Shown here: positions 8,062 through 41,220 of the stretch, piece by piece
Position numbering within the stretch: the first letter of the stretch is position 1
Layout of the letters: each line of letters opens with the position of its first letter
Assembly (NCBI GenBank): GCA_022865275.1
Contig: JALIDQ010000001.1
Coordinates: 1 to 51,141 of the forward strand
Direction of reading: 5' to 3'
DNA from: Candidatus Nanohalarchaeota archaeon QJJ-9
GTDB lineage: Archaea > Nanohalarchaeota > Nanosalinia > Nanosalinales > Nanoanaerosalinaceae
Length of the DNA: 51,141 nucleotides
Translations under genes and position numbers: made by a program
The notes under the pieces: generated by a model
Seen by the model: only the letters and a program-made list of their open reading frames with translations
Told to the model about the DNA's origin: nothing
The model's database searches: none

Positions 8062-8082
8062 ATAATGTGGAGGAAAGATACT

Positions 8083-11561: not shown

Positions 11562-11569
11562 GTGGTTTG

Positions 11570-12454: not shown

Positions 12455-12500
12455 CTTTTTAGTATCAGGTATGGGAAGTATAATATGAGGAGAGAATGAG

Positions 12501-13415: not shown

Positions 13416-13419
13416 GAAG

Positions 13420-14259
13420 ATGCATAAGGAGGGACAGATTTCTATAGACTATGTAGGGGGAGCTATGATATTCTTTGTTTCGATAGTTTTCGTTGTGCAG
13501 GGTATCGTAGGGACTATCCCTCAGTATTCCAGCATCGCCGAATCTAACCGTGAGGAGATAGCGGCATGGGGCCTATCAACTTCTCTTGTAAGTGATACAG
13601 GGTACTGGTCTGATGTGTACGATGGCACCAACTGGGAGGACAATGTTATCACAGGAAAGGTGAAGCGGATAGGTCTAAAGTCGCCGGAGGGATCTGGGGT
13701 TTCACGTGAGAAGATAAACAAGCTACTTGGTATGGATTATAAGGAGATAAAGAAGCTATTCGAGACAGGGAAGGATTTCAGCATAGAGTTTACAGAATAT
13801 GCGGTTGTAAAGCTTTCAGGAGAGTTTTATAGAGGAGGGGATATAGACGGTATAGAGACCTATAACGGTTTTAAACCTCCCAGTGATGGTTTAGGCGGTG
13901 CGGATAGGTATATGCGGTATGGGACTATATCTATCAATGGATCGGAGAGGTATTTTCTAGCATCCTTTGATGACTCTGATTTCGATGGTCTTTATGTTTC
14001 CGACTCTATAGATTTTTCAAGCTCTGAGAAACTTGAGCAGGGAGAACTTAAGACACTCGACTTTAACGGTAGAAGGTTCAGGTTCGGTTTAGGGAGTTCA
14101 GGCCTTTCTACCAGTAACGGAAAGATTCTGCTGGTGGAGAGGGTGATGGGTAGGATAGGTAGGAGGATCCCGACATCGGAGGAAACCGTTACCCGCGTTA
14201 AAAGATATTCAAACACTCAGAAATCGATTATAATGCTTGATATGAGGGTCTGGAAATGA
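13420..14259 (+). CDS. Pilin-like secreted protein (class III signal peptide), 279 aa
   Basis: N-terminus MHKEG/QISIDYVGGAMIFFVSIVFVVQGIVG; overlaps the next gene (ATGA-type junction at 14256-14259). Confidence 0.5.
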   Translation: MHKEGQISIDYVGGAMIFFVSIVFVVQGIVGTIPQYSSIAESNREEIAAWGLSTSLVSDTGYWSDVYDGTNWEDNVITGKVKRIGLKSPEGSGVSREKINKLLGMDYKEIKKLFETGKDFSIEFTEYAVVKLSGEFYRGGDIDGIETYNGFKPPSDGLGGADRYMRYGTISINGSERYFLASFDDSDFDGLYVSDSIDFSSSEKLEQGELKTLDFNGRRFRFGLGSSGLSTSNGKILLVERVMGRIGRRIPTSEETVTRVKRYSNTQKSIIMLDMRVWK

Positions 14260-16418
14260 GGAAGGGTTATCTGCATGCGGTGGAGGGGGTTATAGCCAGC
14301 CTTTTAGCAGTGCTATACCTCGGAACGATTATATCTACCCCTCCCGCCACCGACTGGGAGAAAACCTCTCTCAACAAGCGTTCAGGCGATCTGCTTGGAG
14401 CGATGTCGGAGACAGGTGTTATCGACTATGCGGTACTGGAAGACGATTCTTCTATAGTACGGGGAACAAAGAATGTTCTTGGCTCTAATCTAGAATATTC
14501 TATGCATATCTCAGGCCTTCCGAAAAGGGATATGGAGATTTCTATGATACTGCCGCAGGAGGATGTTACTAGAGCTCCCTCCTTCAACGATTCGTATATA
14601 AACAGTAACTGGGCGGATCTAGGCCTTCCACCGTCAGAAGACGGTGCTGGATACCGTTCCGGAGAGATTATGGGTATAGATTTTGTTGTCTACGATCTTA
14701 TTGAGAACGGTGTAGCTGATTACAATGGGGTTAGCTTTGATATTAACAGAGACGGGGACTTTGGAGACACTGGGATAGACTTTGAGGAAGGTCCTTACCG
14801 TGCCAGGAAAAAGATAGACTGTCGTTCCACCTTCTGCCCTGATACTATAATAGGTTATATCGGTAAATCGCTTACTCTATACAATACCTCGGGAGAGCAG
14901 GAATACGCTCCCGGCCTTTCAGGAGTAGAGATTGGAGGTATTGATGTGGAGACCAGTATTATTCCTGAGGAGATCTACCCTGTTATCAACGTTTCCTCAA
15001 GCGATTTCTCGTATGAAGACGGTTACTGGGTAGCTGACAGGAATATGCAGGGGTTAAATGTAGATTTCAATATATCCGATTCTTCAGGTAATTCTACGCT
15101 CTATATTAATGATTCAGAGCATTTTAGAGGATCTTTTTACTCTGGAGACTCTGTGAGGGTTGCTGGAGGAATCTATTCGATAGAATCAGTTATGCCTCTA
15201 CACTTGAAACCTCAGACCCGGGTGGACTCGGATGTTCTGTTCCTAGAGAGACTGGAACCAGGTTATATAGACAACCATTCCTCTACTATTTACTCCACAC
15301 TGTCCAACGGAGGGACGATTATCGATATGTCTAACTGGACTGAGGAGGATTATCTAGGATCTTGTATGGAAAATCTTGGGATAGGTTGGAGAAACTTTCC
15401 TTACAGCTCTCCTGGAACTGGGTCGAGGTTTTATAGGGGTGAAGACTCTCCCGACTATATAAGGCAGTCTTTCAACAGTATGGGGATCGGATTGAATTCC
15501 AGCCTTTTCGAGGAGCATGGTTCGTATAGTATAGCGAACCTTACGCTTAAAGGCGAGGAGTTTTATGTCAATATAAGTTCCGGCGAGGTCTCTATTAATA
15601 GAACGAAGGAGTTTGATGAATGGTATTCACAGGGAGAAAGGTTGTTCCTTGCTGGCGAGTCTTACAGGATACAGCAGATACAGCCATATCCTTTTGTCCT
15701 GAATACAGGAGATGAATACCGTTTTAAGAATTATCCCGCATCAAACTTTACTGGTGAGACTGTATTAACGGTTGAAAAAGCGGTATGGAATGTTGAAGAG
15801 TCCAGCTACAATGCTACAGGTATGTTTGAATATTCAGGAGATGATTCAACTCTCCCTAACTCTAAATGCGGTAACCGCCGTGTAAATAAAAGCTTTAGCG
15901 TGGGAGAGAACACATTTAATGTTGTATTAACGGATAAAGAGCCTTGTGGAGATTTTGACTATGTCAATTTTGACTTTAACTCTAACGATGCCTACAACGA
16001 CTCCGAGGAGGATACTCCTGCAGGATTCGGTGCGGAAGGGATATACAGGAGGGGAGAAGAGGTGGTTATAGACGGGGAGCCGTATAGGATAGAACTGGGT
16101 AATGAAGTGGACTCTGATCCTTCCGGGGACTGGGTTTACCTTGAGAGAGAGGTGCCTAACCATGTTCCAGCTGCGGTCTGGCATTCTGGTGTGTTTAACG
16201 GTCGAGGAAACCTATTCCAAATGCCTGATGTTAAAATAGGTGATGACGGCATGTCTCTCCTAAAGTCTGTGATAGTCCGCGCGTCAGTTGAGCGTTACAG
16301 GTTTTCGCAGTCAAAGATATCTGGAGGTAACGCTATAGGACTGACCTATGCGGAGGAGCTTGACAACGAAGTCTATCTACCCTATACTATAGAATCTCTA
16401 TGGTGGTACGGTGAATAG
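14256..16418 (+). CDS. Large pilin-like/surface protein (class III signal peptide), 720 aa
   Basis: N-terminus MRKG/YLHAVEGVIASLLAVLYLGTII. Acidic, with many N-x-S/T sequons; no catalytic motifs recognised. Confidence 0.5.
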   Translation: MRKGYLHAVEGVIASLLAVLYLGTIISTPPATDWEKTSLNKRSGDLLGAMSETGVIDYAVLEDDSSIVRGTKNVLGSNLEYSMHISGLPKRDMEISMILPQEDVTRAPSFNDSYINSNWADLGLPPSEDGAGYRSGEIMGIDFVVYDLIENGVADYNGVSFDINRDGDFGDTGIDFEEGPYRARKKIDCRSTFCPDTIIGYIGKSLTLYNTSGEQEYAPGLSGVEIGGIDVETSIIPEEIYPVINVSSSDFSYEDGYWVADRNMQGLNVDFNISDSSGNSTLYINDSEHFRGSFYSGDSVRVAGGIYSIESVMPLHLKPQTRVDSDVLFLERLEPGYIDNHSSTIYSTLSNGGTIIDMSNWTEEDYLGSCMENLGIGWRNFPYSSPGTGSRFYRGEDSPDYIRQSFNSMGIGLNSSLFEEHGSYSIANLTLKGEEFYVNISSGEVSINRTKEFDEWYSQGERLFLAGESYRIQQIQPYPFVLNTGDEYRFKNYPASNFTGETVLTVEKAVWNVEESSYNATGMFEYSGDDSTLPNSKCGNRRVNKSFSVGENTFNVVLTDKEPCGDFDYVNFDFNSNDAYNDSEEDTPAGFGAEGIYRRGEEVVIDGEPYRIELGNEVDSDPSGDWVYLEREVPNHVPAAVWHSGVFNGRGNLFQMPDVKIGDDGMSLLKSVIVRASVERYRFSQSKISGGNAIGLTYAEELDNEVYLPYTIESLWWYGE

Positions 16419-18687
16419 GAGAAAAGCGCAGTTTTTCATACTTACAGCAGTTTTAGTAGCTGGATCTCTTTCGATTACGATGGAGGCTCTCGATGACTAC
16501 ACACAGATAGGCTACACGGAGATATCGGAGAGCAGTTTCCCTATGCAGGTAAGCTCTATAGCTAATACAATAGAAAAATCCTGGTACAGCGAGTCCTGGA
16601 ATTACAGAAAGACTGTAAAGGTGTTTGAGACGAGTGGTAGAGCTGTAGAAAACTTCCCTGTAAGTTTTGATATAAACAGTTCAGCCCTTATTAGCTCTGA
16701 TGGGCTGAAATCGGACTGTGGAGACCTTAGAGTGGTAGAAGACGGTGAAGAAATTCCTTACCAAATAGAGGAAGGGGAGTGTGATTCGGAAAATACTACT
16801 GTATGGTTCATGGTGTCTCTTGAGCCAGGCGAGTCGAAGGACGTCTATCTTTACTATGGAAACAAGGATATAGAAGAGCCTACTTATGGTACTGACCTCT
16901 ACATGGGCGAGGATGGGTTTGGTAACAGTCAGGTTGATTTCGTTACAGGGAGTTTTGACGGCGGTGAAGGTGTATCTGAGGTGAATGTCCAGGGCGAGGA
17001 TATTACAGGCAACGGTGGAGCGATATATGAGGGTTCTCCTAGTTTTGACGTTGTTGAGAGAGGAGAAGTCTATATGGATGTGGAGCTAGGAGGTGAGACC
17101 TACCGATTGTTCTCGGACAACCAGTTCCTCCGTTGGTTAGGGAGTAAGTCGCTTGATCCTGGATTCGAGTTCTGGTACGGTGAAAACGACGGCTTTTCGC
17201 ATTGGGAGGCTGGGAACGAGAGCAACAGCTTTCCCATAAGCAACTACTGGTCGGGAAGCTTTTCTGAAGGTAGTCTACCCTACCTTGCCGCGTATAACGC
17301 TTCCAGTGGCAACTATCTAGCCGCGGCTACCAGCATCCGACAGTCTAACGTGGATGGTTACGGATTCGAGAACAGGAGTTTAGGCCAGTATATGAACTTT
17401 AGCTCTGAAGACAATGGAGACATACCCTACATCGACTTTCTGGTTGGGAAAAACGGTATAAACCACTTCAGGACTAACTATCATACTGTAACACCTAGAG
17501 TAGAACTCTTGGATGGTTCGGAGGAGTTTGGAAAATTTAACCCTACTGATGGCTGGAATAGTAAGGTTAGAGTTTCTGTAAAGGAACGTAACGGAAGCTA
17601 TCTAGAAGAGTATCCTGTAAACTTAAGTCTTAACCTAGGAAGGATGGATACTAAGAGAGATTGCTCCGATCTGGTGGTTGTGGAGGACGGGGATATAGTT
17701 CCTCACAGATTAGCTAGTCGGTGCGACAGTCTCTCGTTTGAGGAGCCGGACAATTACTTTACCCGCTGGGATATGGATGGAGGAGAGGGCGACCGGGTAC
17801 ATAGTACGGACGGGCTTTTCTACGGCGAACTAACCGGTAGTCCACAGCCTGAATGGGATGTGGGAAGGTTTGGTCTGGGGCTAAGGTTTGACGGGGATAA
17901 CTATGTTGAGGTTCCGGATTCCCACAATATTGACCTTTACGACCTTTCTTATACTCTTTCACTCTGGTTTAGAGGGGATGTGAACGAGTTTGATTACGAT
18001 GGAGGCAAGTCCAAGCTTTTCTATTATCCTGAAGAGTCTCCTGGACTCTCTGTTGTAAATGAGACAGGGTATTATTATCTTCAGGCCTCTTTCAGAAACG
18101 AGACAGGAGATCTATCATCTATCAGGGAGGATATAAGTTCTTACGACTCCTCTGAATGGCACCATGTGTCCTATGTGTACAATAAGACTGGTTCGGAGAT
18201 TTTACTATATATTGACGGGGATCAGAAGGGCTCTCAAGATGTTAAAGGCTCTTTAGAAACAGATTCAGACTCTATAAAAATTGGAGAAGGTTTGAAGGGC
18301 TATATGGATGAGATTAAGCTCTATACTACACCGCTAGAAGCAAGGGAGATAAGAGACCAGTATGTTACAACCTCTATAGTAACCTTCAAGACTAACCTTT
18401 CTGCGGGAGAGGTTGAGAGAGATGTGGCGGTATTTGTAGGCAATAATGCGGGTTTGGATAAAGATTTCTCAGGAGAGTTTCCCGCGCCTAATCCCCTTGA
18501 TTCAGACCATAGACCGGTTGTGGTGTCTAAGAACACCTTGACCTACTCTGAAATGATAGGGAGGATTTCTAGGCATATAGAGGAGACTAGCAGCCTTGCT
18601 TCATTCCTTGATATAAGTGTAGAAGGAGGATGTGCTGTTCTAGATTTTGACGCGGGCAGTATAAAGGTAAACAAGAGAATCTGCTAG
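16411..18687 (+). CDS. Large pilin-like protein with DUF2341-like modules and a LamG (Laminin_G_3-like) domain, 758 aa
   Basis: N-terminus MNRRKA/QFFILTAVLVAGSL. DUF2341-like WNYRKTVKV...ENFPVSF...CGDLRVVEDGEEIPYQIE...VWFMVSL...VYLYYGN (aa 62-151), with a partial second copy at aa 380-440. LamG-like GLGLRFDGDNYVEVP...HHVSYVY...LLYIDGDQKG...YMDEIKLYTTPLEAREI (aa 452-648). Confidence 0.65.
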   Translation: MNRRKAQFFILTAVLVAGSLSITMEALDDYTQIGYTEISESSFPMQVSSIANTIEKSWYSESWNYRKTVKVFETSGRAVENFPVSFDINSSALISSDGLKSDCGDLRVVEDGEEIPYQIEEGECDSENTTVWFMVSLEPGESKDVYLYYGNKDIEEPTYGTDLYMGEDGFGNSQVDFVTGSFDGGEGVSEVNVQGEDITGNGGAIYEGSPSFDVVERGEVYMDVELGGETYRLFSDNQFLRWLGSKSLDPGFEFWYGENDGFSHWEAGNESNSFPISNYWSGSFSEGSLPYLAAYNASSGNYLAAATSIRQSNVDGYGFENRSLGQYMNFSSEDNGDIPYIDFLVGKNGINHFRTNYHTVTPRVELLDGSEEFGKFNPTDGWNSKVRVSVKERNGSYLEEYPVNLSLNLGRMDTKRDCSDLVVVEDGDIVPHRLASRCDSLSFEEPDNYFTRWDMDGGEGDRVHSTDGLFYGELTGSPQPEWDVGRFGLGLRFDGDNYVEVPDSHNIDLYDLSYTLSLWFRGDVNEFDYDGGKSKLFYYPEESPGLSVVNETGYYYLQASFRNETGDLSSIREDISSYDSSEWHHVSYVYNKTGSEILLYIDGDQKGSQDVKGSLETDSDSIKIGEGLKGYMDEIKLYTTPLEAREIRDQYVTTSIVTFKTNLSAGEVERDVAVFVGNNAGLDKDFSGEFPAPNPLDSDHRPVVVSKNTLTYSEMIGRISRHIEETSSLASFLDISVEGGCAVLDFDAGSIKVNKRIC

Positions 18688-20758: not shown

Positions 20759-21702
20759 TCTTTTAGACTTGATATCTGAGCCAGTAAGCTTTCTATTTGG
20801 AGGTCTGGTGAGCCTCCTTCTACTATACGGAATTCGTACTCTCCCATCTGCTCGATGACTTCTAGCTTCTTTTGTTCGGATATGTCTAGGTTGTATATTT
20901 CTCTGTTGATCGCTTTTATCACGTCCAGTCCGTCCAGTCCTCTATTGACCATCAGGTCGCTTAGTTCTTTTCTCGCTTCTATAAAATCGCCTTCTAGCGC
21001 TTTGTCCAACACTTCTTTGACCTCTTCAGGCCTCAAGGAGGCGGCGACTTCGAAGACTTTCTCTTCGTCTATCTCTCCACCCTGGATTGAAGCGGCTTGG
21101 AGTACGTTTGTCGCTTTCCTTAGGTCTCCTGAAGATACTCTCTTCAGAGCGTCCATTCCTGTTTCAGTAACTTCCAGTCCTTCTCCTTCTGCTAGGTTGT
21201 CTAGGTATTTCCCTACTTCGTCGTCTTCTAGTCTATTAAAGCGGAAGATAGCGCATCTTGACTGGATTGGAGGTATGATCTTAGAGGAGTAGTTGCAGGA
21301 GAGTATGAAGCGGCAGGATTCTGAATACTTTTCCATTGTACGCCTTAAAGCTTGCTGTGCATCGTTTGTTAGGGCGTCGGACTCGTCTAGAAATATTATC
21401 TTGAAGTCCGCGTTGATTGGCTTGGATCTTGCAAAGTCCTTTATCTGGTTCCTTACCACGCCTATACCTCTATCGTCCGAGGCGTTTGTCTCCATAAAGT
21501 TCTGCTTCCATTCTTCGCCGTACAGGTCTTTGGCTAGTGCTATTGCTGAAGTGGTCTTCCCAGTACCTGCTGGACCTGCGAACATCATATGAGGGACTCT
21601 TTCTTTTTTTACAAACGCTTTAAGACGTTCTGTGATGTTTTTATGCCCTATCACTTCGTCCAGCGTATCTGGTCTGTACTTTTCTGTCCATACATCTATC
21701 AT
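20755..21702 (-). CDS. rfcS: Replication factor C small subunit
   Basis: WTEKYRPDTLDEVIGH, MMFAGPAGTGKTTSA, IIFLDESDALT and SRCAIFRF (SRC motif). Confidence 0.95.
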   Translation of the reverse strand: MIDVWTEKYRPDTLDEVIGHKNITERLKAFVKKERVPHMMFAGPAGTGKTTSAIALAKDLYGEEWKQNFMETNASDDRGIGVVRNQIKDFARSKPINADFKIIFLDESDALTNDAQQALRRTMEKYSESCRFILSCNYSSKIIPPIQSRCAIFRFNRLEDDEVGKYLDNLAEGEGLEVTETGMDALKRVSSGDLRKATNVLQAASIQGGEIDEEKVFEVAASLRPEEVKEVLDKALEGDFIEARKELSDLMVNRGLDGLDVIKAINREIYNLDISEQKKLEVIEQMGEYEFRIVEGGSPDLQIESLLAQISSLKD

Positions 21703-21823
21703 TTTATCACCGAAACCATTACTTTACTGTAAAGAATTTCTGTAACTGAGACTTTTATTGGTTGTGCAGTGTTTCTGAAAAAAAGTTGAAAAGGGTTTAA
21801 AGTTCGGGGAAAAAGTCTTTGCT

Positions 21824-22354
21824 ATGATCGTCTCTATCACAGGTACTCCTGGAACAGGCAAGAGTTCTGTTTCCGAGATCCTTGCAGAGGAGCTGGGTTT
21901 TAAGCTTTTAGATGTCAACGAGGTAGCGTTCTCCGAAGAGGTTGGGACGAGTGAGGGGGATGAACGAGATACTACTGAGGTAGATATAGATACGCTTATT
22001 CCCGCGCTGGAGGAGGAGGTTGGAGAAAACTCGGTTCTGGAAGGACATTTAAGCCACTACTTTCCTTCTGACCTGGTTGTAGTGCTGAGAACGATGCCTG
22101 AGGAGCTGAAAAAAAGGCTTGAGGAAAAGGGCTGGTCTGAGGAAAAGGTTGAGGAAAACTTGGAGTCGGAGGTCCTTGACGGAATCCTACAGGAAGCGGT
22201 TAACCAGCAGGAAGATGTTGTCGAAGTCGATACCACAGGGAAGTCGCCTGGAGAGACTGCAAAACTTGTAAAAAAACTGGTCGAGAATAAGGATAAACGC
22301 GAGGAGTACAGGCCGGGAACTGTTTCCTGGGATCTGGACAAGTATTTAGGGTGA
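21824..22354 (+). CDS. Fap7/AK6-like putative adenylate kinase
   Basis: P-loop MIVSITGTPGTGKSSVSEILA; about 175 aa, with the length and layout of archaeal Fap7-type kinases. Confidence 0.7.
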   Translation: MIVSITGTPGTGKSSVSEILAEELGFKLLDVNEVAFSEEVGTSEGDERDTTEVDIDTLIPALEEEVGENSVLEGHLSHYFPSDLVVVLRTMPEELKKRLEEKGWSEEKVEENLESEVLDGILQEAVNQQEDVVEVDTTGKSPGETAKLVKKLVENKDKREEYRPGTVSWDLDKYLG

Positions 22355-22358
22355 TACT

Positions 22359-23189
22359 ATGGGATTTTTAAGCAAGATAAGGCTTACTGCGTTGTTTGCG
22401 GTTCTGGTAGCGGTATTCGGAGCTGTAGGTCTTTACTTCGGAGGAGCTTCTGGGATGGTGCTGGGATTAATCGTCGCGGGAGCTATGAACTTTGTATCCT
22501 ACTTCTATTCCGATAAGATGGTCGTGAAGATGCATCGTGCGGAGGCTTTAAGCGAGGAAGAAGCTCCTGAAATCCATTCGATAGTGGAGAAGCTTTCAGA
22601 GAAGGCTGGTATACCTAAGCCGAAAGTCTATGCGATGGATGAATCAACTCCTAACGCTTTTGCGACGGGAAGAAAGCCGAGCAAGTCTATTGTATGCGTT
22701 ACATCAGGCTTGATTTCCAACCTTTCTAAGGATGAGGTTGAAGGGGTTCTTGCTCACGAGCTATCCCACATAAAGAACCGAGACACTTTGATTCAGACTG
22801 TTGCAGGCACTCTTGCTGGCGCGATTTCGATTATAGCGCATTTTCTATGGTTTTCTACGTTTGATAATGATAACCAGAATCCTCTTTTTCTTATAGGCGC
22901 GATTGTGCTTGCTCCGCTTGCCGCATCGATGATCAAACTAGCTATATCCCGCTCCAGAGAGTTTTCCGCGGATTCTTCGGCTTCGAAGTTAACCGAACCG
23001 GAGAAACTTGCTTCCGCGCTTGAGTCTATAGAGAGTTCGGTAAGCGCTTCTAGAAAGCCTATGAAAAGAGGTTCTGAGGGAACTTCGCATCTCTACATAG
23101 TCAACCCGTTCAGGAAGTCGGGCCTGGCGAAGCTTTTCTCTACACATCCTCCTACAGAGGAGAGAATTGAGAGGCTTAGGAGTCTGTAG
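22359..23189 (+). CDS. htpX: HtpX-type M48 zinc metalloprotease
   Basis: HELSHIKNRD zinc motif, N-terminal and central TM helices, C-terminal HPPTEERI. Confidence 0.9.
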   Translation: MGFLSKIRLTALFAVLVAVFGAVGLYFGGASGMVLGLIVAGAMNFVSYFYSDKMVVKMHRAEALSEEEAPEIHSIVEKLSEKAGIPKPKVYAMDESTPNAFATGRKPSKSIVCVTSGLISNLSKDEVEGVLAHELSHIKNRDTLIQTVAGTLAGAISIIAHFLWFSTFDNDNQNPLFLIGAIVLAPLAASMIKLAISRSREFSADSSASKLTEPEKLASALESIESSVSASRKPMKRGSEGTSHLYIVNPFRKSGLAKLFSTHPPTEERIERLRSL

Positions 23190-23394
23190 ATTTTTTCCTT
23201 TTATGAATCCTTTTCCTGTCTATTTCTATTTTTCCGAGCTTAATTCCTTTTTCTATGGCTTTTTCAATTCCCTTCTTTTGTTTTTTTCCCATCCATTTCT
23301 ATAGAATAATGTGGTAAGTGCTTTTAATGATTTAGCCCCTCTTTCGACAACCTATTTAAAAGTATGTAGGTCAAGTTTTGGCAGGGAGATAAAC

Positions 23395-23559
23395 ATGGCT
23401 GAGAGGTTCAAGGAAGCGGATGAGAGGATTTTTAAAGACGTGTATATCTGTAGGAAGTGCAATGCCAGGAACAAGGTCCACGATCCTGAAGATGCTAAAT
23501 GCAGGAAGTGCGGCTATGACGGGCTTAGACCTAAGAATAAGGAGTTTGCATCCGAGTAA
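23395..23559 (+). CDS. rpl40e: Ribosomal protein eL40
   Basis: [13 protein letters not shown]...[31 protein letters not shown] zinc-ribbon pattern of eL40. The track ORF start at 23311 is an upstream in-frame extension. Confidence 0.8.
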
Positions 23560-23608
23560 TGCCTGTTTCTTTTTCCTTCTAAAATCCAGGCTTTTTTGAG
23601 GTGAGACA

Positions 23609-25204
23609 ATGCAAAAACACTGGGCTGACCAACTTGCTGGAAAGGTGAAGGACGAGAGAGGAGACAAGGACAGTTATATATTCAACTCCGGGATGTCTAT
23701 CTCCGGTAAAATGCATATAGGAAACTTGAGAGGAGAGCTCGCGATCCCTTCCCGAGTCAAGCGTATTCTCGAGCAGGAGGGGAAGGATGTGAAGTTTTAT
23801 GGTATATACTACACCCAGGACAGGTTTAAAGCGAAAGACTCGCAGCTTGAGAAGTTTGATGATCCGGAGGAAGCGGAGAAGTATGAGGGGTGGAGGCTTG
23901 TTGATGTGCCTGATCCGGAAGGCTGTCACGAAAACTGGGTAGAGCATTTTAACTCGGAGAACCAGCCCTACCTTCCTGAATACGGTATAGAGGTTGAGCC
24001 TCTTACGACTACGGAGTTCTACAGGATGGATGAGACCAAGGAGCTCATCCGCAAGTTTCTTGAAAACAAAGAGAGGGTTAGGCAGGTCCTGAACGAGTAC
24101 AGGGACAGGCAACCGTATCCTGAAGGATGGATTCCGTTTGATCCTCGCTGTGAGAGCTGTAATAGGATAGATAAGACTGATGCGAAGGAGATAGATTTTG
24201 AAGAAGACAGGGTTAGATATGAATGTAAAGCATGCGGAGACGAGGGATGGTCTCCTATAGAGAAAGGAAAGCTTGCATGGAGGCTTGAATGGTCTGCTTT
24301 ATGGGAGGTACTAGATGTGGACTTTGAACCGTACGGAAAGGACCATGCGACTCCAGGAGGCTCCAGGGACTCTTGCGTAGCTCTTGCGGAGGAATTTGAC
24401 TTGAACTATCCTACCGGTTTCTCCTTCAACTGGGTCTACTGGAAGCGGGAAGGAGAGGTGAAGGGTGATATGACCTCTTCAGGCGATCGAGGAATAACGA
24501 CTAAGGCTTTCCTTGACTATGCGGAGCCTGAGGTTTTAACCTACCTCTATCTCTCTACTAAGCCTATGAAGGAAATCTACTTCGACCCGGACAAGCTGCC
24601 TGACTATGTAAGGCGTTTCGATCGTGCTGAGTCTATCTACTTTGGAGAGGAAGAGGCAAGAGACGAGAAGCGCGAGGAGAACATAAAGAGGAACTATGAA
24701 CTAGCGATGCTGGATTTACCTGAAAAAAGCCCGGTAAGGATTCCCTACAAGGCTGCATGTATGATATACCAGCTTGTAGAATCTGAGGACAGGCGTGTAA
24801 AGGTTGCGAAGAAGCTTGAAGATGTTCCATCACAGTTATCTGAGGAAGACAGGAAGAGAGTCCTTGAGAGGATTGAGATGGCTGGGAACTGGCTTGGAGA
24901 ATATCCTGTCGAAGACTTCAGGATAGAGGTTCAGGAGGAAGTCTCTGAGGAAGCTAGAGATGAGCTTTCCGAGGAGGAGCTTAAGGCTCTGAAGTCTCTA
25001 GGAGAGGATTTAGAGGAGGAATTGTCTGCCAAAGAGGCTCAGTCCAAGGTCTACGAGCTCAGCGATGATTTCGATATAGGTGCGGGAGAGGCCTTCCAGT
25101 CCGTATACCTTACCATCCTAGGAAAAGAGTCAGGACCGAGAGCAGGCAACCTGATAAAGGCGGTAGGCCAAGAGAAGGTCCGGGACCTGATAGACCAGCT
25201 CTGA
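23609..25204 (+). CDS. lysK: Lysyl-tRNA synthetase, class I
   Basis: N-terminal HWADQLA...NSGMSISGKMHIGNLRGE (HIGH-type motif) and about 530 aa fit archaeal class I LysRS, which is not the class II architecture. Confidence 0.9.
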   Translation: MQKHWADQLAGKVKDERGDKDSYIFNSGMSISGKMHIGNLRGELAIPSRVKRILEQEGKDVKFYGIYYTQDRFKAKDSQLEKFDDPEEAEKYEGWRLVDVPDPEGCHENWVEHFNSENQPYLPEYGIEVEPLTTTEFYRMDETKELIRKFLENKERVRQVLNEYRDRQPYPEGWIPFDPRCESCNRIDKTDAKEIDFEEDRVRYECKACGDEGWSPIEKGKLAWRLEWSALWEVLDVDFEPYGKDHATPGGSRDSCVALAEEFDLNYPTGFSFNWVYWKREGEVKGDMTSSGDRGITTKAFLDYAEPEVLTYLYLSTKPMKEIYFDPDKLPDYVRRFDRAESIYFGEEEARDEKREENIKRNYELAMLDLPEKSPVRIPYKAACMIYQLVESEDRRVKVAKKLEDVPSQLSEEDRKRVLERIEMAGNWLGEYPVEDFRIEVQEEVSEEARDELSEEELKALKSLGEDLEEELSAKEAQSKVYELSDDFDIGAGEAFQSVYLTILGKESGPRAGNLIKAVGQEKVRDLIDQL

Positions 25205-25281
25205 GCTCTTTTTCTTTTTATTCCTCTCCAGGGTTAAGAAATAAAAAGGTGTGTCCCCCTGAAACCTATGTTAGCGTCTAA

Positions 25282-25408
25282 GCCCCGTTAGCTCAGCTGG
25301 GAGAGCACGTCCTTGGTATCTCAGGACACACTCCGAACCCGATGCCAACGCGAGTTGAGTCTGAGAACAGAAAGGACGAGGTCCCGGGTTCGAATCTCGG
25401 ACGGGGCT
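25282..25408 (+). tRNA. tRNA-Thr (anticodon GGU) with 54-nt intron
   Basis: GCCCCGT-TA-GCTC-AGCTGGGA-GAGC-A-CGTCC-TTGGTA [intron 25319-25372] A-GGACG-AGGTC-CCGGG-TTCGAAT-CTCGG-ACGGGGC-T. Confidence 0.85.
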
Positions 25409-25467: not shown

Positions 25468-28400
25468 TTACGAAGTTACGCATGCTTTTTGTGATTTTTG
25501 GGATTCTCCTGCTTCGTTGAACGCGGCTATTCTGTAACAAGCTTTTTCTCCTTGTTCTAGGTTTTTGTCTATGAAGTTTGTGTTTCTTTGGCCTGTTCCT
25601 CCTACATTGTTTGATTGGAAGCTGTGGACTTTTTTCCAGGTGCCTGAGGAGTTGGTGTAGACGTTGAATCCGTCCTCCACAACAGAAGCATCCCTAAAGG
25701 TTAGGTTTATTCCTAGACCAACCTCGAAAGTAAAAGTATCGGAAGTATAGTTTCCTTTTCCGTCTGATACGTTTACGTACCAGTTGTAGGTTGTGTTTGC
25801 TTCTAGTCCTGTCCATGAGACGCTTGCTGAACCGCTTCCATTGATTTCTGTCTGTTTGGAGCCGATTTGCTCGTTGTTGTTTGCGTTGAAGAACCATGCG
25901 TCCATCGAATCACCGTCCGCATCCGAAACATTAACATCTAGATCTGCAACAGTCGAACCAAGAACCTTCCCGCCCGAAGGAGAAGGATTGGATACTGTAG
26001 GTAGTTTATTGACGTCATTAATCATCAACTTAAAGCTATCGATACTAGGAGAATGGGAATGTCCACTATCCGTTACAGAAAGGTTTGTTTCTATTTGGTA
26101 TCTGTAGCCGCCGGATAGATTGAAATCATTGTCCTTAAATGTGTTTAATCCGTCTGAAAGGCTTACTCCATCACTCTCTGAATGACTCCAGGATTCAATA
26201 CTCCCGTCATCATCCGTATCAACACCCAACCTAACCAAAGCCTTTTCACCATTACCTATAGAAGCATTAACCTTCAAACTGTTAACCTGCTGCTCAACAG
26301 AAGTTCCTGCATCCCAGATATTAGACCTCCAAAAACCCTTCTCAGAACCTTTGAAAAACTCAATCCTACCAGTAACCATCCTACAAGTATCCCCATTAGA
26401 AACCGTATTCCACATCCTAACCGAATCAAAACTGCTTGGAACAGTTTTAGAAGTATTTGAAGAATCAAAAACATACCACTCCTCCCCATCCGCACCAACA
26501 ACAGTCCCAACATCATCCTGAGACCAATCACTCTCCGCCCAAGCACTAGAACCCTCAGATTTATCCGTAAGAACATCAAAAGACTTAACCAAATTATCAT
26601 TCTCATCAAAGAAATCTACCGCAAGACCATCAGACTGAGCTGTATTACTATCAATCCTCAAAGGAGTAGTCCTCAAATACAACCTAAACCGTTCAGCACC
26701 CTGATAAGCCCCAGGAAAACCATATTGACCCTCAAGCCAATAACGCACACCCCTATTACTACTCCCACCATCCTGATTCCAGTAAAAAGAACCAGAACCC
26801 TCCTCAAAATAATAACTATCCGTAAAATAATCACCAGCATCCACACCATTAAGATTACGTAAATCCACCGGATAATTGGACAAACCATCCTGAGAATCAT
26901 GCGGAACAACAGTAACACGATCCAACCTCAAAGAACCCGCCTCAGTAGTAGTATTCGAAAAACTACCTAAACCCCAATCACCCCCCGAAACAACCCTCCA
27001 AACCTCCCCAGTCTCAACACGAAAACCACGCTCAGAAAGAGAAACAGTATCAGAACCATCAGAAACCACCACATACCAACTATAATCCGAAAAATCCTCC
27101 AAACCACTCCAAGTAACAGAAGCAGTACCACCAGAACTTACACCAGTAACCTTCTCAATCAACGAACCATCAGAAGCATCGTAGAACGAAACATTCATAT
27201 CCTCACCCTCCCTATGCTCCAAACTAACATTCAACTCAGGACTAGAAGTCTCCAAGACCTTACCATCCGCAGGACCATAACCCGCAACATCCAACCAACC
27301 ATCACGCGTAAACAACTCAAAACCACCAACACCCGGAGAATGAGAAAAATTACCATCAGTCACAGACAAATTAAACTCAGCCTGATAACGATAACCTGAA
27401 GAAAGATCAAAATCACCGCCTCCCAAACTATTCAAACCATCAGAAACACTTACACCACCACCCTCAGAATGACTCCAGGTATCAATACTCCCGTCATCAT
27501 CCTCATCAACACCCAAACGAACCCTAACAGACTCATTCACACCAACAGAAGCATTAACCTCCAAACCATCAACCTGCTGCTTAACAGAAGTCCCAGCATC
27601 CCAAACCCTACTACTCCAAAAACCAGAATCAATAGAACTGTTCTCAAAACTATCAGGCCTAGTACGATTATACAACTGCCCAATCTCACTCTCCGACAAA
27701 GCCCGGTCGTATATGCGGACCTCATCTATTTTGCCGTTGAAATAATCTGCCCATCCATCGCCCATACCTCCTTGGTCGTTCCCTAGTGAATCATAATAGC
27801 TTCCGGTGGAAGGACTTGAGCTGAAACTTGCCACTTCTTGACTGTTTTTGTAAATCGTAAATGTGGAACCATCTTCTACTGCTGTTAAGTGAGTCCAAGT
27901 ATCAGCTGAGATAGTAGTTAAATCGCTATGGTAGTTGCCGTTTTGCCATGTTGATATGTAACCATTTGAGTTCTCTGCAATCCAGAATGGAAGGAAGCTG
28001 GCAGAGCCCCTCAAAGCTATAACTCTCTGAGAACTAGAGACAGTATCAGGATTCAACCATAAGGACACTGTCTTAGGCGAAGGATTAGGCAATAGACTTG
28101 GAAGATCTGTATAATCATCGCTTCCATCAAAACTCAGAGCGTTCCCATACATTCCGTCTGTCCAGATGGCTCCGTTGATGGTTCCGTCGTTGTTGTTTCC
28201 TGATATGTCGTATGCTGTGGTTCCTGTTCCTTCGTCCATGGACCACCATCCGACTGCATCCTTACCTGTTAGGCTGACTTGGCTGTTGTTCGCAACAGTA
28301 CGAATGTCACGACCTAGCTCCCAGTCCAACCAATCGTTTTGAGAACTAACTGTCCAGAGTTCTTTGTTCTCGGTTCTAAAGCTTCTTGGTGATAGGTTAG

Positions 28401-29574
28401 CGGTGTTAGTTCCGTCTGTGACTTTGATGTACCATGTGTAGTTTGTAAAGTCCTGCAGGCTAGACCAGGTAATAGAAGCAGTAGATCCAGAACTTACACC
28501 CGTAACTTTCTCTATTAACGAGTCGTCGGAAGCATCGTAGAACGACACGTTCATATTTTCGCTATTGTTATGTTCTAAGGTAGCATTCAATACCGGGTTA
28601 ACAGTATCCAAGACTTTACCATCTTCTGGAGATAGTGAAATATTCGACAACCATCCTTCATGGGTTTCAAGCTCGAAAGAGCTAATAGAAGGTGTATGGG
28701 AGGTGTAACCATCAGTGATACTTAGATTATACTCTATTTTATACCGGTAGCCCGGAGGTAAACCAAAATCAGAACCATCCAACATATTCGAACCATCAGA
28801 AACACTTACTCCGTCTCCTTCTGAATGGCTCCAGGAATCTATTGTACCGTCATCATCCGTATCAACACCTAAACGAACCTTAACAGACTCATTCACACCA
28901 ACAGAAGCATTAATACGGAGATAATCTATCTTTTGAAAAGATACAGCGTCTGTATCCCAGACTGGAGAAGACCATAAACCATCAGAATAGTATGAACTGG
29001 TTCTTAAATTATCAACAGAAAAATCTATAATCTGGCCACCATAATCTGATCCAACAAATTTCCCATAAAACTTAACTGTATGTGTTCCCGAATAACTAGA
29101 AATATTTACAGATACCGGGGTTTTTGTCAGTCCGTCATTAGTAGTGACCCAGACAGTACTTCCATCAATTCTTAACTGAGCCTCATCATCGGAACCGCCA
29201 TCAAGATCCCTAACATTTATATCAAAGTAAAGAGTACCGCCATCAAGATTAAAATCCTTATACATCTCCGGCTCCGGAGTATTACCTTCATCACCTCCTA
29301 AATTTAGGGCGCCAGTACCTTCAGTATACCAAGTCGAATCATTCTGAGCCTCAGGCCCGCTCCAACCACTTTCACAGGAATCTCTAGGAACTTCCAGAGT
29401 TAGAGTAGTATTATAGTTAGTCCGGTTAAAATATCCTTCCCCCCATTCAGTTTGATTGTTAACGTTCCAGTTTGTTGCTGTTACACTTGTAGAGAAAAGA
29501 GGTAGTAGTATAAGGAAGGATAATAGAAGGAACGAACTCTTCTTGCTTCCTAACTTTTTTCTTGTGCTGGCCAA
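25468..29574 (-). CDS. Giant secreted adhesin-like protein (1368 aa): signal peptide, three tandem modules of about 205 aa, LamG domain, FN3-like C-terminal module
   Basis: TTG start with AGGTGG 6 nt upstream and signal-like LLLSFLILLPLFSTSVTA. LamG-like WWSMDEGTGTTAYDISGNNNDGTINGA...IDEVRIYDRALSESEI. Repeats carry RLGVDxDDDGxIxxWSHSE. Many N-x-S/T sequons. Confidence 0.85.
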   Translation of the reverse strand: MASTRKKLGSKKSSFLLLSFLILLPLFSTSVTATNWNVNNQTEWGEGYFNRTNYNTTLTLEVPRDSCESGWSGPEAQNDSTWYTEGTGALNLGGDEGNTPEPEMYKDFNLDGGTLYFDINVRDLDGGSDDEAQLRIDGSTVWVTTNDGLTKTPVSVNISSYSGTHTVKFYGKFVGSDYGGQIIDFSVDNLRTSSYYSDGLWSSPVWDTDAVSFQKIDYLRINASVGVNESVKVRLGVDTDDDGTIDSWSHSEGDGVSVSDGSNMLDGSDFGLPPGYRYKIEYNLSITDGYTSHTPSISSFELETHEGWLSNISLSPEDGKVLDTVNPVLNATLEHNNSENMNVSFYDASDDSLIEKVTGVSSGSTASITWSSLQDFTNYTWYIKVTDGTNTANLSPRSFRTENKELWTVSSQNDWLDWELGRDIRTVANNSQVSLTGKDAVGWWSMDEGTGTTAYDISGNNNDGTINGAIWTDGMYGNALSFDGSDDYTDLPSLLPNPSPKTVSLWLNPDTVSSSQRVIALRGSASFLPFWIAENSNGYISTWQNGNYHSDLTTISADTWTHLTAVEDGSTFTIYKNSQEVASFSSSPSTGSYYDSLGNDQGGMGDGWADYFNGKIDEVRIYDRALSESEIGQLYNRTRPDSFENSSIDSGFWSSRVWDAGTSVKQQVDGLEVNASVGVNESVRVRLGVDEDDDGSIDTWSHSEGGGVSVSDGLNSLGGGDFDLSSGYRYQAEFNLSVTDGNFSHSPGVGGFELFTRDGWLDVAGYGPADGKVLETSSPELNVSLEHREGEDMNVSFYDASDGSLIEKVTGVSSGGTASVTWSGLEDFSDYSWYVVVSDGSDTVSLSERGFRVETGEVWRVVSGGDWGLGSFSNTTTEAGSLRLDRVTVVPHDSQDGLSNYPVDLRNLNGVDAGDYFTDSYYFEEGSGSFYWNQDGGSSNRGVRYWLEGQYGFPGAYQGAERFRLYLRTTPLRIDSNTAQSDGLAVDFFDENDNLVKSFDVLTDKSEGSSAWAESDWSQDDVGTVVGADGEEWYVFDSSNTSKTVPSSFDSVRMWNTVSNGDTCRMVTGRIEFFKGSEKGFWRSNIWDAGTSVEQQVNSLKVNASIGNGEKALVRLGVDTDDDGSIESWSHSESDGVSLSDGLNTFKDNDFNLSGGYRYQIETNLSVTDSGHSHSPSIDSFKLMINDVNKLPTVSNPSPSGGKVLGSTVADLDVNVSDADGDSMDAWFFNANNNEQIGSKQTEINGSGSASVSWTGLEANTTYNWYVNVSDGKGNYTSDTFTFEVGLGINLTFRDASVVEDGFNVYTNSSGTWKKVHSFQSNNVGGTGQRNTNFIDKNLEQGEKACYRIAAFNEAGESQKSQKACVTS

Positions 29575-35359: not shown

Positions 35360-36142
35360 TTAGGTTTCGTAGTCTGCCTGGAACTGGTTCAGCTCTGCCT
35401 GGGACTGATCTAAGGACTCGTAGGAGGGGATTACGTCTTCCATATCCACTTCTACGAACTCTAGGTTTTTCTTTTCTAGGTATTCTTTGACGTTATCCGA
35501 GCATTTTGGCGCGACTAGGATTCCTCTTATTTCTCTTCCAGGATATTCTTCTTCTATCTCGTCTACGTAACGACCTAGCTGGAGGACTGAGTTGTGGTCG
35601 GGATTTCTCTTGACTTCTATAACGACTAGTTGGTTGTCTTTGCTCCTTGCGAATACGTCTATAAATCCTGCGTCTGTCTCTTTTTCTCTTTCTACTATTT
35701 TGAGGTCTTCTTCTACTAGTTCTGGGTTTTCTTCTATTGCTTCGTGTATATCTATTTCGTGGCCTTTGATTTTGAGGTCTGACTTGTCTACTAGCTGGGT
35801 TATATGAAGCATCTCTATCTCTCCGAATCTGATTTCTACGGTTTCTTCTGGATTGTTTCTTTTTGATTCGAGGATGAGTTCTTCTTTGTCAGCTCTAAGA
35901 TTGAACTGGTCTGTATCTGGCTGCCAGTTCTTGGGCTGGTAGTTTTCTGGTCCATGGACTAGTAATGAGTTGTCCTGTTTAACTATAACTAGTCTTTCTC
36001 CTCTATCGAGCTTTGACTTGGTTCTTCCTTGGTAGTTTACTGAGCAGAGTCCTGTTAAGGTTACTGTGTAGTTCCTTCTGAGGTATTCTTCGAGTAGTTC
36101 TTTTGCTTCTGTTTTGCTGGGAGATTCTACTAGTTTTTCCAT
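35360..36142 (-). CDS. nucS: Endonuclease NucS (EndoMS)
   Basis: C-terminal RecB-like core GFIDVFARSKDNQLVVIEVKRNPDHNSVLQLGRYV and an N-terminal half-barrel region (RLVIVKQDNSLLVHGP); 260 aa. Confidence 0.85.
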   Translation of the reverse strand: MEKLVESPSKTEAKELLEEYLRRNYTVTLTGLCSVNYQGRTKSKLDRGERLVIVKQDNSLLVHGPENYQPKNWQPDTDQFNLRADKEELILESKRNNPEETVEIRFGEIEMLHITQLVDKSDLKIKGHEIDIHEAIEENPELVEEDLKIVEREKETDAGFIDVFARSKDNQLVVIEVKRNPDHNSVLQLGRYVDEIEEEYPGREIRGILVAPKCSDNVKEYLEKKNLEFVEVDMEDVIPSYESLDQSQAELNQFQADYET

Positions 36143-37517: not shown

Positions 37518-38909
37518 ATGAGGAGGAAGACTTTACTTTTAGCTATGCTGGTTCTGGTTGCCTCTACTGCTTCTGCAGTTGATTCTTTCGAGGTAGATAT
37601 AACATCTGAAAACACGAGGTTAAATCCAAGCGAGGGAGAGACAGCCGCGTTTTATGTGAATGTTACAAACACAGGCGACTCGGAGGGGACTTTTGAGACA
37701 AGCTATTCCTCTGCTGCTTCTCCTGTATGGATAAATGCCAAGTCTCCTATCAATACTCTGGCTCCTGGGGAATCGGGAGTGACTGAGATTACGGTTTCTC
37801 CTGATGAAAAGGCGGTGAGCAATTCATGGGGACTGGATATAAGGGTTGTTTCGTGGGATGATGGGGAGGAGTTCCAGACTCTTGAGTCCTTTGATGTTGT
37901 ACGGGATAGGGATCTTGTTATAACTAATTTCAAGGGTGCAAGGTCTAGTTACAAACCTAACTCGCATGTAAATGTTTCTGTTGATGTTAAGAATGTTAGA
38001 GTTGATGAACTACCAGCGAACCAGTACCAGGTGGTTCTGGACGTTGAGGGGGATAATGTTACTGAACCTATTCCGTCGCTGGAGTTGGGAGAGTCTGCCT
38101 CGGTTGGTATAGATTTGAAGCTTGAGAACTATGAGGCGGGAGTTTACGACCTTGAAGCGGTTGTAAGGGAGATTCAGGGAGATGTGCACAGCACTTATGG
38201 TTCGAAGATTGAGGTTGAGCCGTTTAAAGATGTTGTAAAGGAGGAGGAGTCTACTTCCAAGTTTTTCGGTTCCCAAAGGAGCTTTAAAGTCTCTAATAAT
38301 GGGAATATAAGGGCGGAGAATGTTACTAGGACTTTCTCACTTCCATGGTATGCCTCACCTTTTGTCTCGTTCTCTGAGGAGCCTGTAAAGGAGGGGGATC
38401 AGTATACCTGGAAGGTTGAGGAGCTTGAGCCTGGAGAAGAAGCTAGTTTTACTTATTCTGTAAGCTACTGGCCTCTTGCTGCGGTCGCTGTTATCATCGC
38501 GGCGATCCTTGTTATGCTCTACTGGAGTATGCGGAAGGTTTCGATTGTTAAGTCGGTGAGGCGGGGGGAGGACTATCATAATGTCCATTTAAGGGTTAAG
38601 AATAATACTGGAAGGACTGTAGGCAAGGTTAGGGTCCAGGATTTCGTGCCTGGAATTGCTTCTCTTATCGAGAAGTTTGATTCGAGGAGTCCTGAGAGGA
38701 TTCAGAATACTGAGGAGGGCACTAAGCTTACCTGGAGGCTTGGGCAGGTTGAACCTGGTGAGGAGAGGATTATCAGCTATAGGATAAAGCCTAAGGTTCA
38801 GGTTGAGGGAACTGTGTCGATTCCTAACGCGGAGGTTTTCTACCAGGTCGATGGTAAGAACCGCGAGGCGACTTCTAATCCTACCTCTACGGCTTTTCCG
38901 GAGCAGTAG
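37518..38909 (+). CDS. Bitopic surface protein with CARDB/Ig-like repeats
   Basis: Signal peptide MRRKTLLLAMLVLVASTASA, beta-rich repeats (ITNFKGARSSYKPNSHVNVSVDVKN...), a single TM helix (WPLAAVAVIIAAILVMLYW) at about aa 318-338, then a C-terminal domain of about 125 aa. Confidence 0.5.
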   Translation: MRRKTLLLAMLVLVASTASAVDSFEVDITSENTRLNPSEGETAAFYVNVTNTGDSEGTFETSYSSAASPVWINAKSPINTLAPGESGVTEITVSPDEKAVSNSWGLDIRVVSWDDGEEFQTLESFDVVRDRDLVITNFKGARSSYKPNSHVNVSVDVKNVRVDELPANQYQVVLDVEGDNVTEPIPSLELGESASVGIDLKLENYEAGVYDLEAVVREIQGDVHSTYGSKIEVEPFKDVVKEEESTSKFFGSQRSFKVSNNGNIRAENVTRTFSLPWYASPFVSFSEEPVKEGDQYTWKVEELEPGEEASFTYSVSYWPLAAVAVIIAAILVMLYWSMRKVSIVKSVRRGEDYHNVHLRVKNNTGRTVGKVRVQDFVPGIASLIEKFDSRSPERIQNTEEGTKLTWRLGQVEPGEERIISYRIKPKVQVEGTVSIPNAEVFYQVDGKNREATSNPTSTAFPEQ

Positions 38910-39329: not shown

Positions 39330-39626
39330 ATGCCAAGACCGAGGAGGAGGAGAAGGGTTAGAAGAAGACCTGCAGCGGATTTTTACAAGCCGGCAGGAAT
39401 ACCTAAACGCGAGCTTGAAGAGGTCAATCTTAAAGTAGAAGAAGTCGAGGCTCTGAGGTTGAAGGACGCGGAAGGAAGGTCTCAGGAGGATGCTGCTGAC
39501 GAGATGGATGTCTCGCAGTCTACTTTCCATAGGATTCTGACTTCTGCAAGGGAGAAGGTTGCGGAGGCTGTAACTGAAGGAATGGCTCTTAGAATAGAGG
39601 GGGGAAGCTATGAGATTGAGGAGTAG
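39330..39626 (+). CDS. DUF134 (UPF0251) putative DNA-binding protein
   Basis: MPRPRRRRRVRRRPAADFYKPAGIP N-terminus and HTH-like DEMDVSQSTFHRILTSAREKVAEA. Confidence 0.8.
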   Translation: MPRPRRRRRVRRRPAADFYKPAGIPKRELEEVNLKVEEVEALRLKDAEGRSQEDAADEMDVSQSTFHRILTSAREKVAEAVTEGMALRIEGGSYEIEE

Positions 39627-41115: not shown

Positions 41116-41220
41116 CCCTCCTTAGCTCAGCCTGGCAGAGCGTCCGCCTGTAGCACCAGCCGGATGCTATCCACTGTTTCAGCCAGCGGATCGTCCCCCG
41201 TTCAAATCGGGGAGGAGGGA
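41116..41220 (+). tRNA. tRNA-Tyr (anticodon GUA) with 31-nt intron
   Basis: CCCTCCT-TA-GCTC-AGCCTGGCA-GAGC-G-TCCGC-CTGTAG [intron 41154-41184] A-GCGGA-TCGTC-CCCCG-TTCAAAT-CGGGG-AGGAGGG-A. Has the C1:G72 pair characteristic of archaeal tRNA-Tyr. Confidence 0.9.

Follow-up and report, generated by a model that had tools for sequence, protein, structure and literature searches.

The nearest documented analogue of the locus described here is the set of vls antigenic-variation cassettes of Lyme Borrelia, made up of the vlsE expression site and its silent cassettes. Coding-strand GC skew of the vls cassettes averages 0.52, vs. 0.18 along the chromosomal leading strand, and the skew is regarded by those authors as important for segmental gene conversion (PMC11499132). 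The locus lies in the first 51,141 nt of contig JALIDQ010000001.1 from Candidatus Nanohalarchaeota archaeon QJJ-9, hereafter the window, and is an internal block of 512 codons (26170-27705, minus strand) in the gene for a predicted secreted or cell-surface protein of 1368 aa. Like vls, it is a segment of a surface-protein gene that carries signs of segmental conversion, and its coding-strand GC skew (~0.5) is far above background. The two differ in that G+C is raised in vls (49% vs. 28%) and unchanged in the block, and in that AT skew is near zero in vls, whereas T is enriched even beyond G in the block. Runs of 3-5 G are present in vls, whereas G runs were not clustered here and the junctions had no inverted repeats. 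An array of ~90%-identical silent cassettes adjoins vls, whereas none was visible here in 51 kb. The host of vls is a spirochaete, and the present host is an archaeon.

Codon style was expressed as K3, the fraction of G or T at codon position 3, and was segmented using a three-state (L, M, H) hidden Markov model (HMM) on K3. In strongly skewed genomes, spirochaetes included, G/T-ending codons are used in leading-strand genes, and Lafay et al. are said to have reported replication-strand-specific codon usage in spirochaetes in 1999. To our knowledge, with no search aimed at it, no genome has been described with a K3 near 0.93, the value of the block. As in replication-strand codon usage, baseline K3 in the window was orientation-dependent, and the block lies on the same axis, with bases ordered T>G>A>C. 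Unlike replication-strand codon usage, the block reached 0.93 (vs. ~0.6), started and ended inside a gene, and had the opposite sign for its strand.

AID/APOBEC, ADAR and diversity-generating retroelements (DGRs) likewise cause particular bases to be lost from a single strand where a gene encodes a variable surface or receptor-binding protein. With each of these, a single kind of substitution arises (C>T, A>G or A>N), irrespective of codon position, whereas four classes were observed here and position 3 was saturated. DGRs also act on short tracts and depend on both a template repeat and a reverse transcriptase; the tract here is 1.5 kb, with no template found and no reverse transcriptase among the ORFs scanned.

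The window encodes a thermosome, RFC, a class I LysRS and NucS (35360-36142, minus strand). NucS/EndoMS recognises G/T, G/G and T/T mismatches, and hardly A/C, A/A or C/C (PMC4838380; PMC6159521). Its keto and amino classes are exactly those that separate the block from its paralogues. The link here is a correspondence of base classes only, and a genome-wide repair bias would by itself be insufficient for tracts of 1-1.5 kb.

A block of G- and T-ending codons in a large surface-protein gene

The gene, the block and its junctions were placed as follows.

25468-29574, minus strand: open reading frame (ORF) of 1368 aa, predicted secreted or cell-surface protein (ORF list, translation and an N-terminal signal-like segment).
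aa 483-631 of the 1368-aa protein, minus strand: LamG domain (Pfam Laminin_G_3, 2e-25).
aa 199, 651 and 1080 of the 1368-aa protein, minus strand: starts of three ~220-aa repeats (repeat alignment).
26170-27705, minus strand: H-type block, aa 624-1135, 512 codons (HMM on third positions).
27682-27729, minus strand: upstream junction (third-position K/m string and direct sequence reading).
26170-26337, minus strand: downstream junction, graded, at the start of repeat 3 (codon alignment of repeats and K/m string).
28846-28911, minus strand: short stretch of repeat 1 in H style, matching repeat 2 (27490-27555) at 61/66 nt (92%).

The 1368-aa protein also had a weak Ig/fn3 Pfam match, and its C-terminal domain was common to a second surface-protein gene at 47800-49506.

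Across ~26200-27700, plus-strand GC skew was -0.45 to -0.59 (300-nt windows), falling to ~0 on both flanks, and plus-strand AT skew was +0.3 to +0.44. Among all 1536-nt windows of the 51 kb, the block was the extreme (GC skew -0.51; G+T 0.30, median 0.54). The sense strand of the block comprised G 0.33, T 0.37, A 0.19 and C 0.11, with a GC skew of +0.51 over 1536 nt (elsewhere -0.1 to +0.4), and G+C (0.41-0.45) equalled that of the flanks and the window. A sequence-only reading had described the block as one of extreme sense-strand cytosine depletion in what it labelled an adhesin gene. Its hand counts proved exact, at 4 G between 26761 and 26820 of the plus strand and 14 G between 28141 and 28200, and the depletion was real and stronger than described, but the description was incomplete, as A was depleted too.

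The third codon position was G or T in 475/512 block codons (93%, vs. 0.2-0.8 elsewhere; P ~1e-25 even against p = 0.75). K3 was 0.86-0.98 along aa ~624-1135 and 0.08-0.80 in the remainder of the gene. Codon positions 1 and 2 shifted moderately, from 0.55 to 0.70 and from 0.42 to 0.50 G/T, respectively. Four-fold sites of the block were T 0.77, G 0.17, A 0.04 and C 0.02; two-fold pyrimidine codons were 94% T-ending and two-fold purine codons 91% G-ending, and the effective number of codons (Nc) was 30.6, compared with ~50 in other genes. Leucine moved from CTN to TTG, a synonymous first-position change (TTG 0.72 vs. 0.11 in plus-strand genes), and arginine moved slightly from AGR to CGN (AGR from 0.72 to 0.57). 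Amino-acid composition drifted in parallel, with K, I, N and T down and G, V, R and E up (Lys 1.9%, Ile 1.6%, Gly 12.6%, Val 9.9%). The sense-strand pressure prefers keto bases (G, T) over amino bases (A, C).

Cytosine-specific depletion was ruled out by the equal depletion of A and by the movement of arginine codons towards CGN; selection against cytosine, one of the causes offered earlier, is unsupported by the same codons, as the change from AGR to CGN runs the wrong way. A bisulfite-type sequencing artefact was ruled out because C remains at positions 1 and 2 and the pattern tracks codon position. An overlapping antisense gene was also ruled out, since the plus strand opposite the block holds only short low-complexity ORFs.

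G3+ runs, G4+ runs and G-quadruplex-like motifs in the block were within 1.4 standard deviations of synonymous-codon shuffles; a G-quadruplex or G-run signal was therefore ruled out, as composition alone accounts for it. TGG, GTG and GGT words in the block were not enriched over such shuffles. Predicted mRNA folding energies were alike inside and outside the block (-33.3 vs. -30.7 kcal per 150 nt), and selection for unstructured mRNA was ruled out on this basis.

The upstream edge was a step between codon 623 (ending at 27706) and codon 624 (starting at 27705), and the switch sits within the conserved LamG C-terminal motif, between IDEVRIYD and RALSESEI. The third-position string at this edge read 'mmmmmKKmmmmm' and was thereafter almost all K. 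The downstream edge faded across ~50 codons, and the block terminated in repeat 3, just past the DNA segment that is best conserved among the repeats, VRLGVDTDDDGSIESWSHSE. The sharp boundaries first placed by eye at ~27700 and ~26200 agree with the HMM edges at 27705 and 26170 (aa 624-1135), the second of them graded. Between the edges lie the LamG end, repeat 2, a middle part that is unique, and ~55 codons from the start of repeat 3. No inverted repeats were found at the junctions (27705 and 26170), and no motif was shared across the block junctions.

In the HMM segmentation the 1368-aa gene was a patchwork of L, M and H segments, the sole such gene in the window, with the others essentially uniform. 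Repeat 1, which had been taken to be of ordinary composition, was largely so in codon style, but it held two short H-style patches. The 66-nt patch listed above is likely an intragenic gene-conversion tract, judging from its identity to repeat 2. Repeats 1 and 2 were 62% identical in nucleotides overall and 58% in amino acids, repeat 1 being the closest relative of repeat 2, and repeats 2 and 3 were 78% identical over 194 nt (27431-27624 vs. 26144-26337). Conserved residues of the repeat family were retained in the H-type repeat.

A second block of the same class was present on the opposite strand.

47800-49506, plus strand: second surface-protein gene, P0091, 568 aa, with N-terminal GLUG repeats.
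48394-49506, plus strand: second H-type block, aa 199-569 of P0091, 371 codons, K3 0.92, running to the stop codon.

Four-fold sites of the second block were T 0.69, G 0.23, A 0.05 and C 0.03, Nc was 32, and the codon table was near-identical to that of the first block; across both blocks, two-fold pyrimidine codons were 93-94% T-ending, two-fold purine codons 86-91% G-ending, and Nc was 30-32. The 5' edge was patchy and lay inside the reiterated GLUG motif VGGLVG. The last ~170 aa of P0091 were 52% identical to the C-terminus of the 1368-aa protein, where the codon style is the opposite, L-type (K3 0.10-0.38). Each H-type block thus has a non-H paralogue in the window. These were the only two long H tracts in the ~12,000 codons of the window (HMM), and the reading frame was preserved through four junctions in the two genes.

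Direction of change and strand-linked codon usage

Repeats 1, 2 and 3 were aligned codon by codon, with repeat 1 ordinary and repeat 2 H-type in style. From repeat 1 to repeat 2, counts over all positions were A>G 60 vs. G>A 5, C>T 51 vs. T>C 7, A>T 45 vs. T>A 15 and C>G 30 vs. G>C 2. Synonymous third positions were compared wherever both the amino acid and the two preceding bases of the codon agreed; of the positions with A or C in repeat 1, 39/45 were now G or T (A>T 11, A>G 10, C>T 17, C>G 1), and ~90% of those already G or T were unchanged. At positions 1 and 2 the counts were A>G 39:4 and C>G 22:2, yielding S>G, T>S, I>V, D>G and N>D. The C-terminal domains gave an independent comparison, with A>T 15, A>G 10, C>T 31 and C>G 2 at synonymous sites, and 82 A/C-to-G/T changes vs. 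21 in reverse at positions 1 and 2. At four-fold sites of the two comparisons pooled, A>T outnumbered A>G by 24 to 4. As read from these alignments, A/C-to-G/T change is of all four types, at all codon positions, and in the same direction in two independent comparisons.

The codon-by-codon alignment of the repeats proposed with the sequence-only reading thus showed a directional bias, in which C-to-T was not dominant among the four types. Strand-specific C-to-T hypermutation, another of the causes proposed, lacks support in that form, since A was lost as much as C, and A>T and C>G were about as common as transitions. Near saturation of position 3, with only partial change at replacement sites, argues for gradual change under purifying selection, with no single burst. 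Single-burst deaminase hypermutation was ruled out by the transversions and the codon-position dependence. A DGR-like process was assessed in the same alignments, where repeat differences involved C as much as A, and were not confined to adenines.

Targeted mutagenesis of the sense strand in place is unlikely as the origin of the block. It would suppose that the non-template strand is repeatedly single-stranded, through R-loops, transcription or a dedicated diversification enzyme, and that damage-type changes (C>T, A>G, A>T, G>T) build up on it while selection keeps the protein working. The bias does track the sense strand in both gene orientations, amino-acid composition was dragged along (K, I, N and T down; G, V, R and E up), and the four-fold sink is T, as deamination with abasic-site bypass would give. 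A transcription-wide process is a poor fit, however, to a step edge in mid-gene and to the L-type 3' end of the same transcript (K3 0.10-0.24), and C>G was frequent at positions 1 and 2. K3 was just 0.50 in the thermosome gene, whose expression is probably high, G runs that would favour R-loops or G-quadruplexes were not above composition, and no deaminase or reverse transcriptase was present among the scanned ORFs.

Change of all four A/C-to-G/T types fits selection on a base class better than one chemical lesion, and composition may have been selected for function, either because a G+T-rich strand aids RecA/RadA-family pairing and conversion, as has been suggested for the skewed vls cassettes, or because NNU and NNG wobble codons tune translation. 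RecA prefers TGG/GT-rich single-stranded DNA (PMC3763553), the coding-strand GC skew (~0.5) is the same as in vls cassettes (0.52; chromosome 0.18; PMC11499132), and both blocks are in repeat-bearing surface-protein genes with signs of conversion. We nevertheless consider this improbable: G+C was not raised, G runs, G-quadruplex-like motifs and TGG were not above synonymous shuffles, the junctions were without inverted repeats, and predicted mRNA folding energy was unchanged. A silent-cassette array, ~90% identical, was found neither in the 51-kb window (blastn, tblastn) nor in public collections.

Codon usage across the window was linked to strand. All 28 plus-strand ORFs had K3 of 0.39-0.79, the maximum being the gene that holds the second block, and 7/10 minus-strand ORFs had K3 of 0.20-0.36. 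Four-fold sites were T 0.40, G 0.20, A 0.24 and C 0.16 in plus-strand genes, and T 0.19, G 0.14, A 0.45 and C 0.23 in minus-strand genes, the latter the near complement of the former. Orientation sets third-position G/T for the other 37 ORFs, whereas the block, on the minus strand, had 0.93 where 0.2-0.36 is expected. Where no ORF of 150 aa or longer was present, in stretches that do include smaller ORFs and genes for RNAs, plus-strand G+T was just 0.545, so a K3 of 0.93 is not simply the neutral equilibrium of the plus strand. The plus strand is moderately keto-rich, as a leading strand would be.

The two-class codon usage that had been raised as a caveat to the sequence-only reading exists, in the form of strand-linked classes, but the block does not belong to either of them. 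It is a discrete third class, far more extreme than the two-class usage and of the wrong sign for its strand. That it is an ordinary tail of that usage, arising from leading-strand sequence inverted onto the lagging strand, is accordingly quite unlikely. The strand-linked K3 baseline and the near-complementary four-fold compositions of plus- and minus-strand genes speak for such a tail, and its direction matches the preference for A>G and C>T measured on the leading strand of a bacterium that depends on NucS (PMC6159521). The block, with its K3 of 0.93 and its Nc of 30, is, however, well outside the range of plus-strand genes (maximum 0.79; Nc 40-52), just two long H tracts occur in ~12,000 codons, both beginning mid-gene, and sequence outside the larger ORFs reached only 0.545.

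Strand dependence is well illustrated by the plus-strand ORFs at 732-1355, 37518-38909 and 42298-43182 and by the minus-strand ORFs at 35360-36142, 43777-44319 and 49538-50164, the last with T at only 2% of third positions. It is consistent with a fairly strong replication-strand asymmetry in a NucS-encoding archaeon.

Short G/T-ending runs were also seen in housekeeping genes, namely in an RsmB-like methyltransferase and its PUA partner (42979-43432, plus strand; K3 0.85-0.97 over 30-97 codons) and in LysRS (23840-23917, plus strand; K3 0.96 over 26 codons). These are near chance given the baseline, and could be small tracts of the same process.

Proposed recombination and the search for a donor

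With about even confidence, the gene is interpreted as a mosaic from homologous recombination or gene conversion, which would have imported a segment long under sense-strand keto pressure with purifying selection. The interpretation is drawn from the step-like edge in a conserved motif, the patchwork gene and the converted patch in repeat 1, and of the three causes proposed from the sequence these observations support the one that invokes recombination or gene conversion, the donor having a different codon bias. The internal 1.5-kb H-type segment would have reached its present position through crossovers at conserved motifs, with the LamG C-terminus on the upstream side and the repeat's conserved core on the downstream side; both block edges lie at the sequences likeliest to be shared with paralogues. 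A surface-protein paralogue or a cassette elsewhere in this genome could have served as donor, plausibly from the opposite strand (plus, and probably leading), and the 3' 1.1 kb of 47800-49506 shares the composition. The sign of the block, opposite for its strand, is as expected of sequence evolved on the other strand, and the order of plus-strand four-fold sites at baseline (T>G>A>C) is the rank order in the block. H-type composition would have arisen gradually, by a long-acting sense-strand A/C-to-G/T pressure, which may be mutational and not selective in nature, filtered by purifying selection on the protein.

Several results weigh against a recombination mosaic. No second copy of the block was found in the 51-kb window (blastn, tblastn), and its unique middle has no paralogue in the window with which to recombine. 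No close homologue of the whole protein or of the block was found in an index of 5.8e9 proteins, nor of the block in a HMMER library of 1.8e9 proteins, and searches of metagenome, genome, viral, phage and plasmid collections (tblastn for phage and plasmid) gave no donor or orthologue. A 3.9-kb Logan contig from SRR18572986, 100% identical to window positions 21508-25408, stops short of the block, which is thus without independent assembly support. H-type K3 (0.93) is also far above ordinary plus-strand genes (0.39-0.79) and the plus strand outside the larger ORFs (0.545), so leading-strand residence alone cannot explain the block.

The closest match over all donor and orthologue searches was 62% identity on an 86-aa fragment, and the best protein matches covered only the common ~80-aa Ig-like module or the LamG domain. 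A word-indexed search with the 512-aa block missed the window's own protein, which a full HMMER search returned; negatives from the word index need caution, as the query is low-complexity and G/S/V-rich. Exact-protein look-ups for neighbouring genes gave nothing, or only the 3.9-kb Logan contig.

The only homologue with the wider architecture of the block was P0057 (1535 aa, 32-37% identity; locus L016, JGI 3300017826, Ga0189785_1006, gene 3702-8309). Homologues had K3 of 0.53 (P0057), 0.58 (P0265, L020) and 0.40-0.63 (P0211 contig, L017), and a family-wide codon habit was ruled out by the ordinary usage at these three loci. The closest LysRS relatives were in Candidatus Aenigmatarchaeota metagenome-assembled genomes (60-63% identity), and at the LysRS loci of these relatives no tract exceeded K3 0.73.

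The P0057 contig is 20.9 kb, and the called genes in the 18.3 kb read all shared one strand, followed each other closely and for the most part had no Pfam hit; the contig resembles an archaeal virus or mobile element. A 505-bp contig (L019; ENA ERZ1034537, coverage ~1) carried a fragment 62% identical to repeat 2, with an in-frame stop upstream, in which ~130 ordinary codons are followed by ~33 codons, 85% of them G/T-ending, up to the stop. It is a weak hint of such tracts elsewhere and may be another mosaic, and is too short and too thinly covered to trust.

Downstream of the 1368-aa gene the following feature was identified.

25282-25408, plus strand: tRNA with a 56-nt intron, ending 60 nt from the stop codon of the 1368-aa gene.

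The independent Logan assembly breaks exactly at the 3' end of this tRNA, and the break may reflect population variability or an insertion boundary. Foreign DNA acquired by horizontal transfer, or an assembly chimera joined at conserved motifs, was considered in this light and is very unlikely. The edges are at conserved motifs, where recombination and assembler joins are both possible, the nearest homologue in architecture is on a virus-like contig, and the intron-containing tRNA with its assembly break is 60 nt from the gene. Against these, all homologues with readable DNA had ordinary K3, G+C of the block equalled that of the window, the reading frame ran on through all four junctions of the two genes, and the nearest relative of repeat 2 was repeat 1 of the same gene (58% aa). 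No integrase was found among the scanned ORFs, and an att-like repeat of the tRNA end was searched for and not found. More widely, reverse transcriptase, deaminase, integrase and recombinase were all absent among the window ORFs scanned.

A mismatch bias of NucS could underlie the strand-linked baseline. In wild-type NucS-dependent cells, A>G exceeds T>C (48 vs. 13) and C>T exceeds G>A (67 vs. 40) on the leading strand (PMC6159521). Amino/amino mispairs that escape repair would turn a template A or C into G or T, giving the four substitution types seen in the block. A bolder proposal, which we regard as unlikely, is that a strand-polar, keto-directed drive, peculiar to organisms that rely on NucS/EndoMS, has left the H-type tracts behind, and that the blocks mark programmed or semi-programmed surface variation, vls-like in outcome. 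Heteroduplexes or repair synthesis in often-recombining surface-protein cassettes would then be resolved asymmetrically, and many rounds would push one strand towards G+T wherever the protein tolerates it.

Although the literature was not checked systematically, we know of no description in archaea of an intragenic, near-total synonymous bias with codon-sharp edges. Two such blocks lie within 51 kb, each in a surface-protein gene of what is probably a symbiont lineage of the DPANN archaea, and in such lineages contact with the host is expected to be mediated by surface proteins. Should the blocks be recombination cassettes, a mechanism of surface variation in DPANN archaea would be indicated. 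If the bias is mutational, they would be a natural read-out of a strand-specific process, possibly tied to the keto-mismatch specificity of NucS and strong enough to reshape amino-acid composition.

Other features of the window

A type IV pilus or archaellum-like cluster is at 8065-18687 (plus strand), with pilin-like proteins and two large proteins. It includes a FlaI-type ATPase (9774-11561) and an ArlJ/FlaJ-like membrane protein split over two ORFs (11567-12454 and 12501-13415). One of the two large proteins (16411-18687, plus strand) has DUF2341 as well as another LamG domain, and the codon usage of its gene is ordinary.

Rfam tRNA matches at 1971-2064, 2947-3109 and 4650-4834 (minus strand) were 94-185 nt long, and so are probably intron-bearing; they were missed by ARAGORN. 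The tRNA-SeC(tca) called by ARAGORN at 41143-41220 (plus strand) is doubtful, being without an Rfam report at the gathering score. Two ORFs that overlap by 4 nt (39610-40062 and 40059-40580, plus strand) each matched the N-terminal half of ArsP_1 below the curated cutoff, and these adjacent ORFs may represent a split or duplicated permease.

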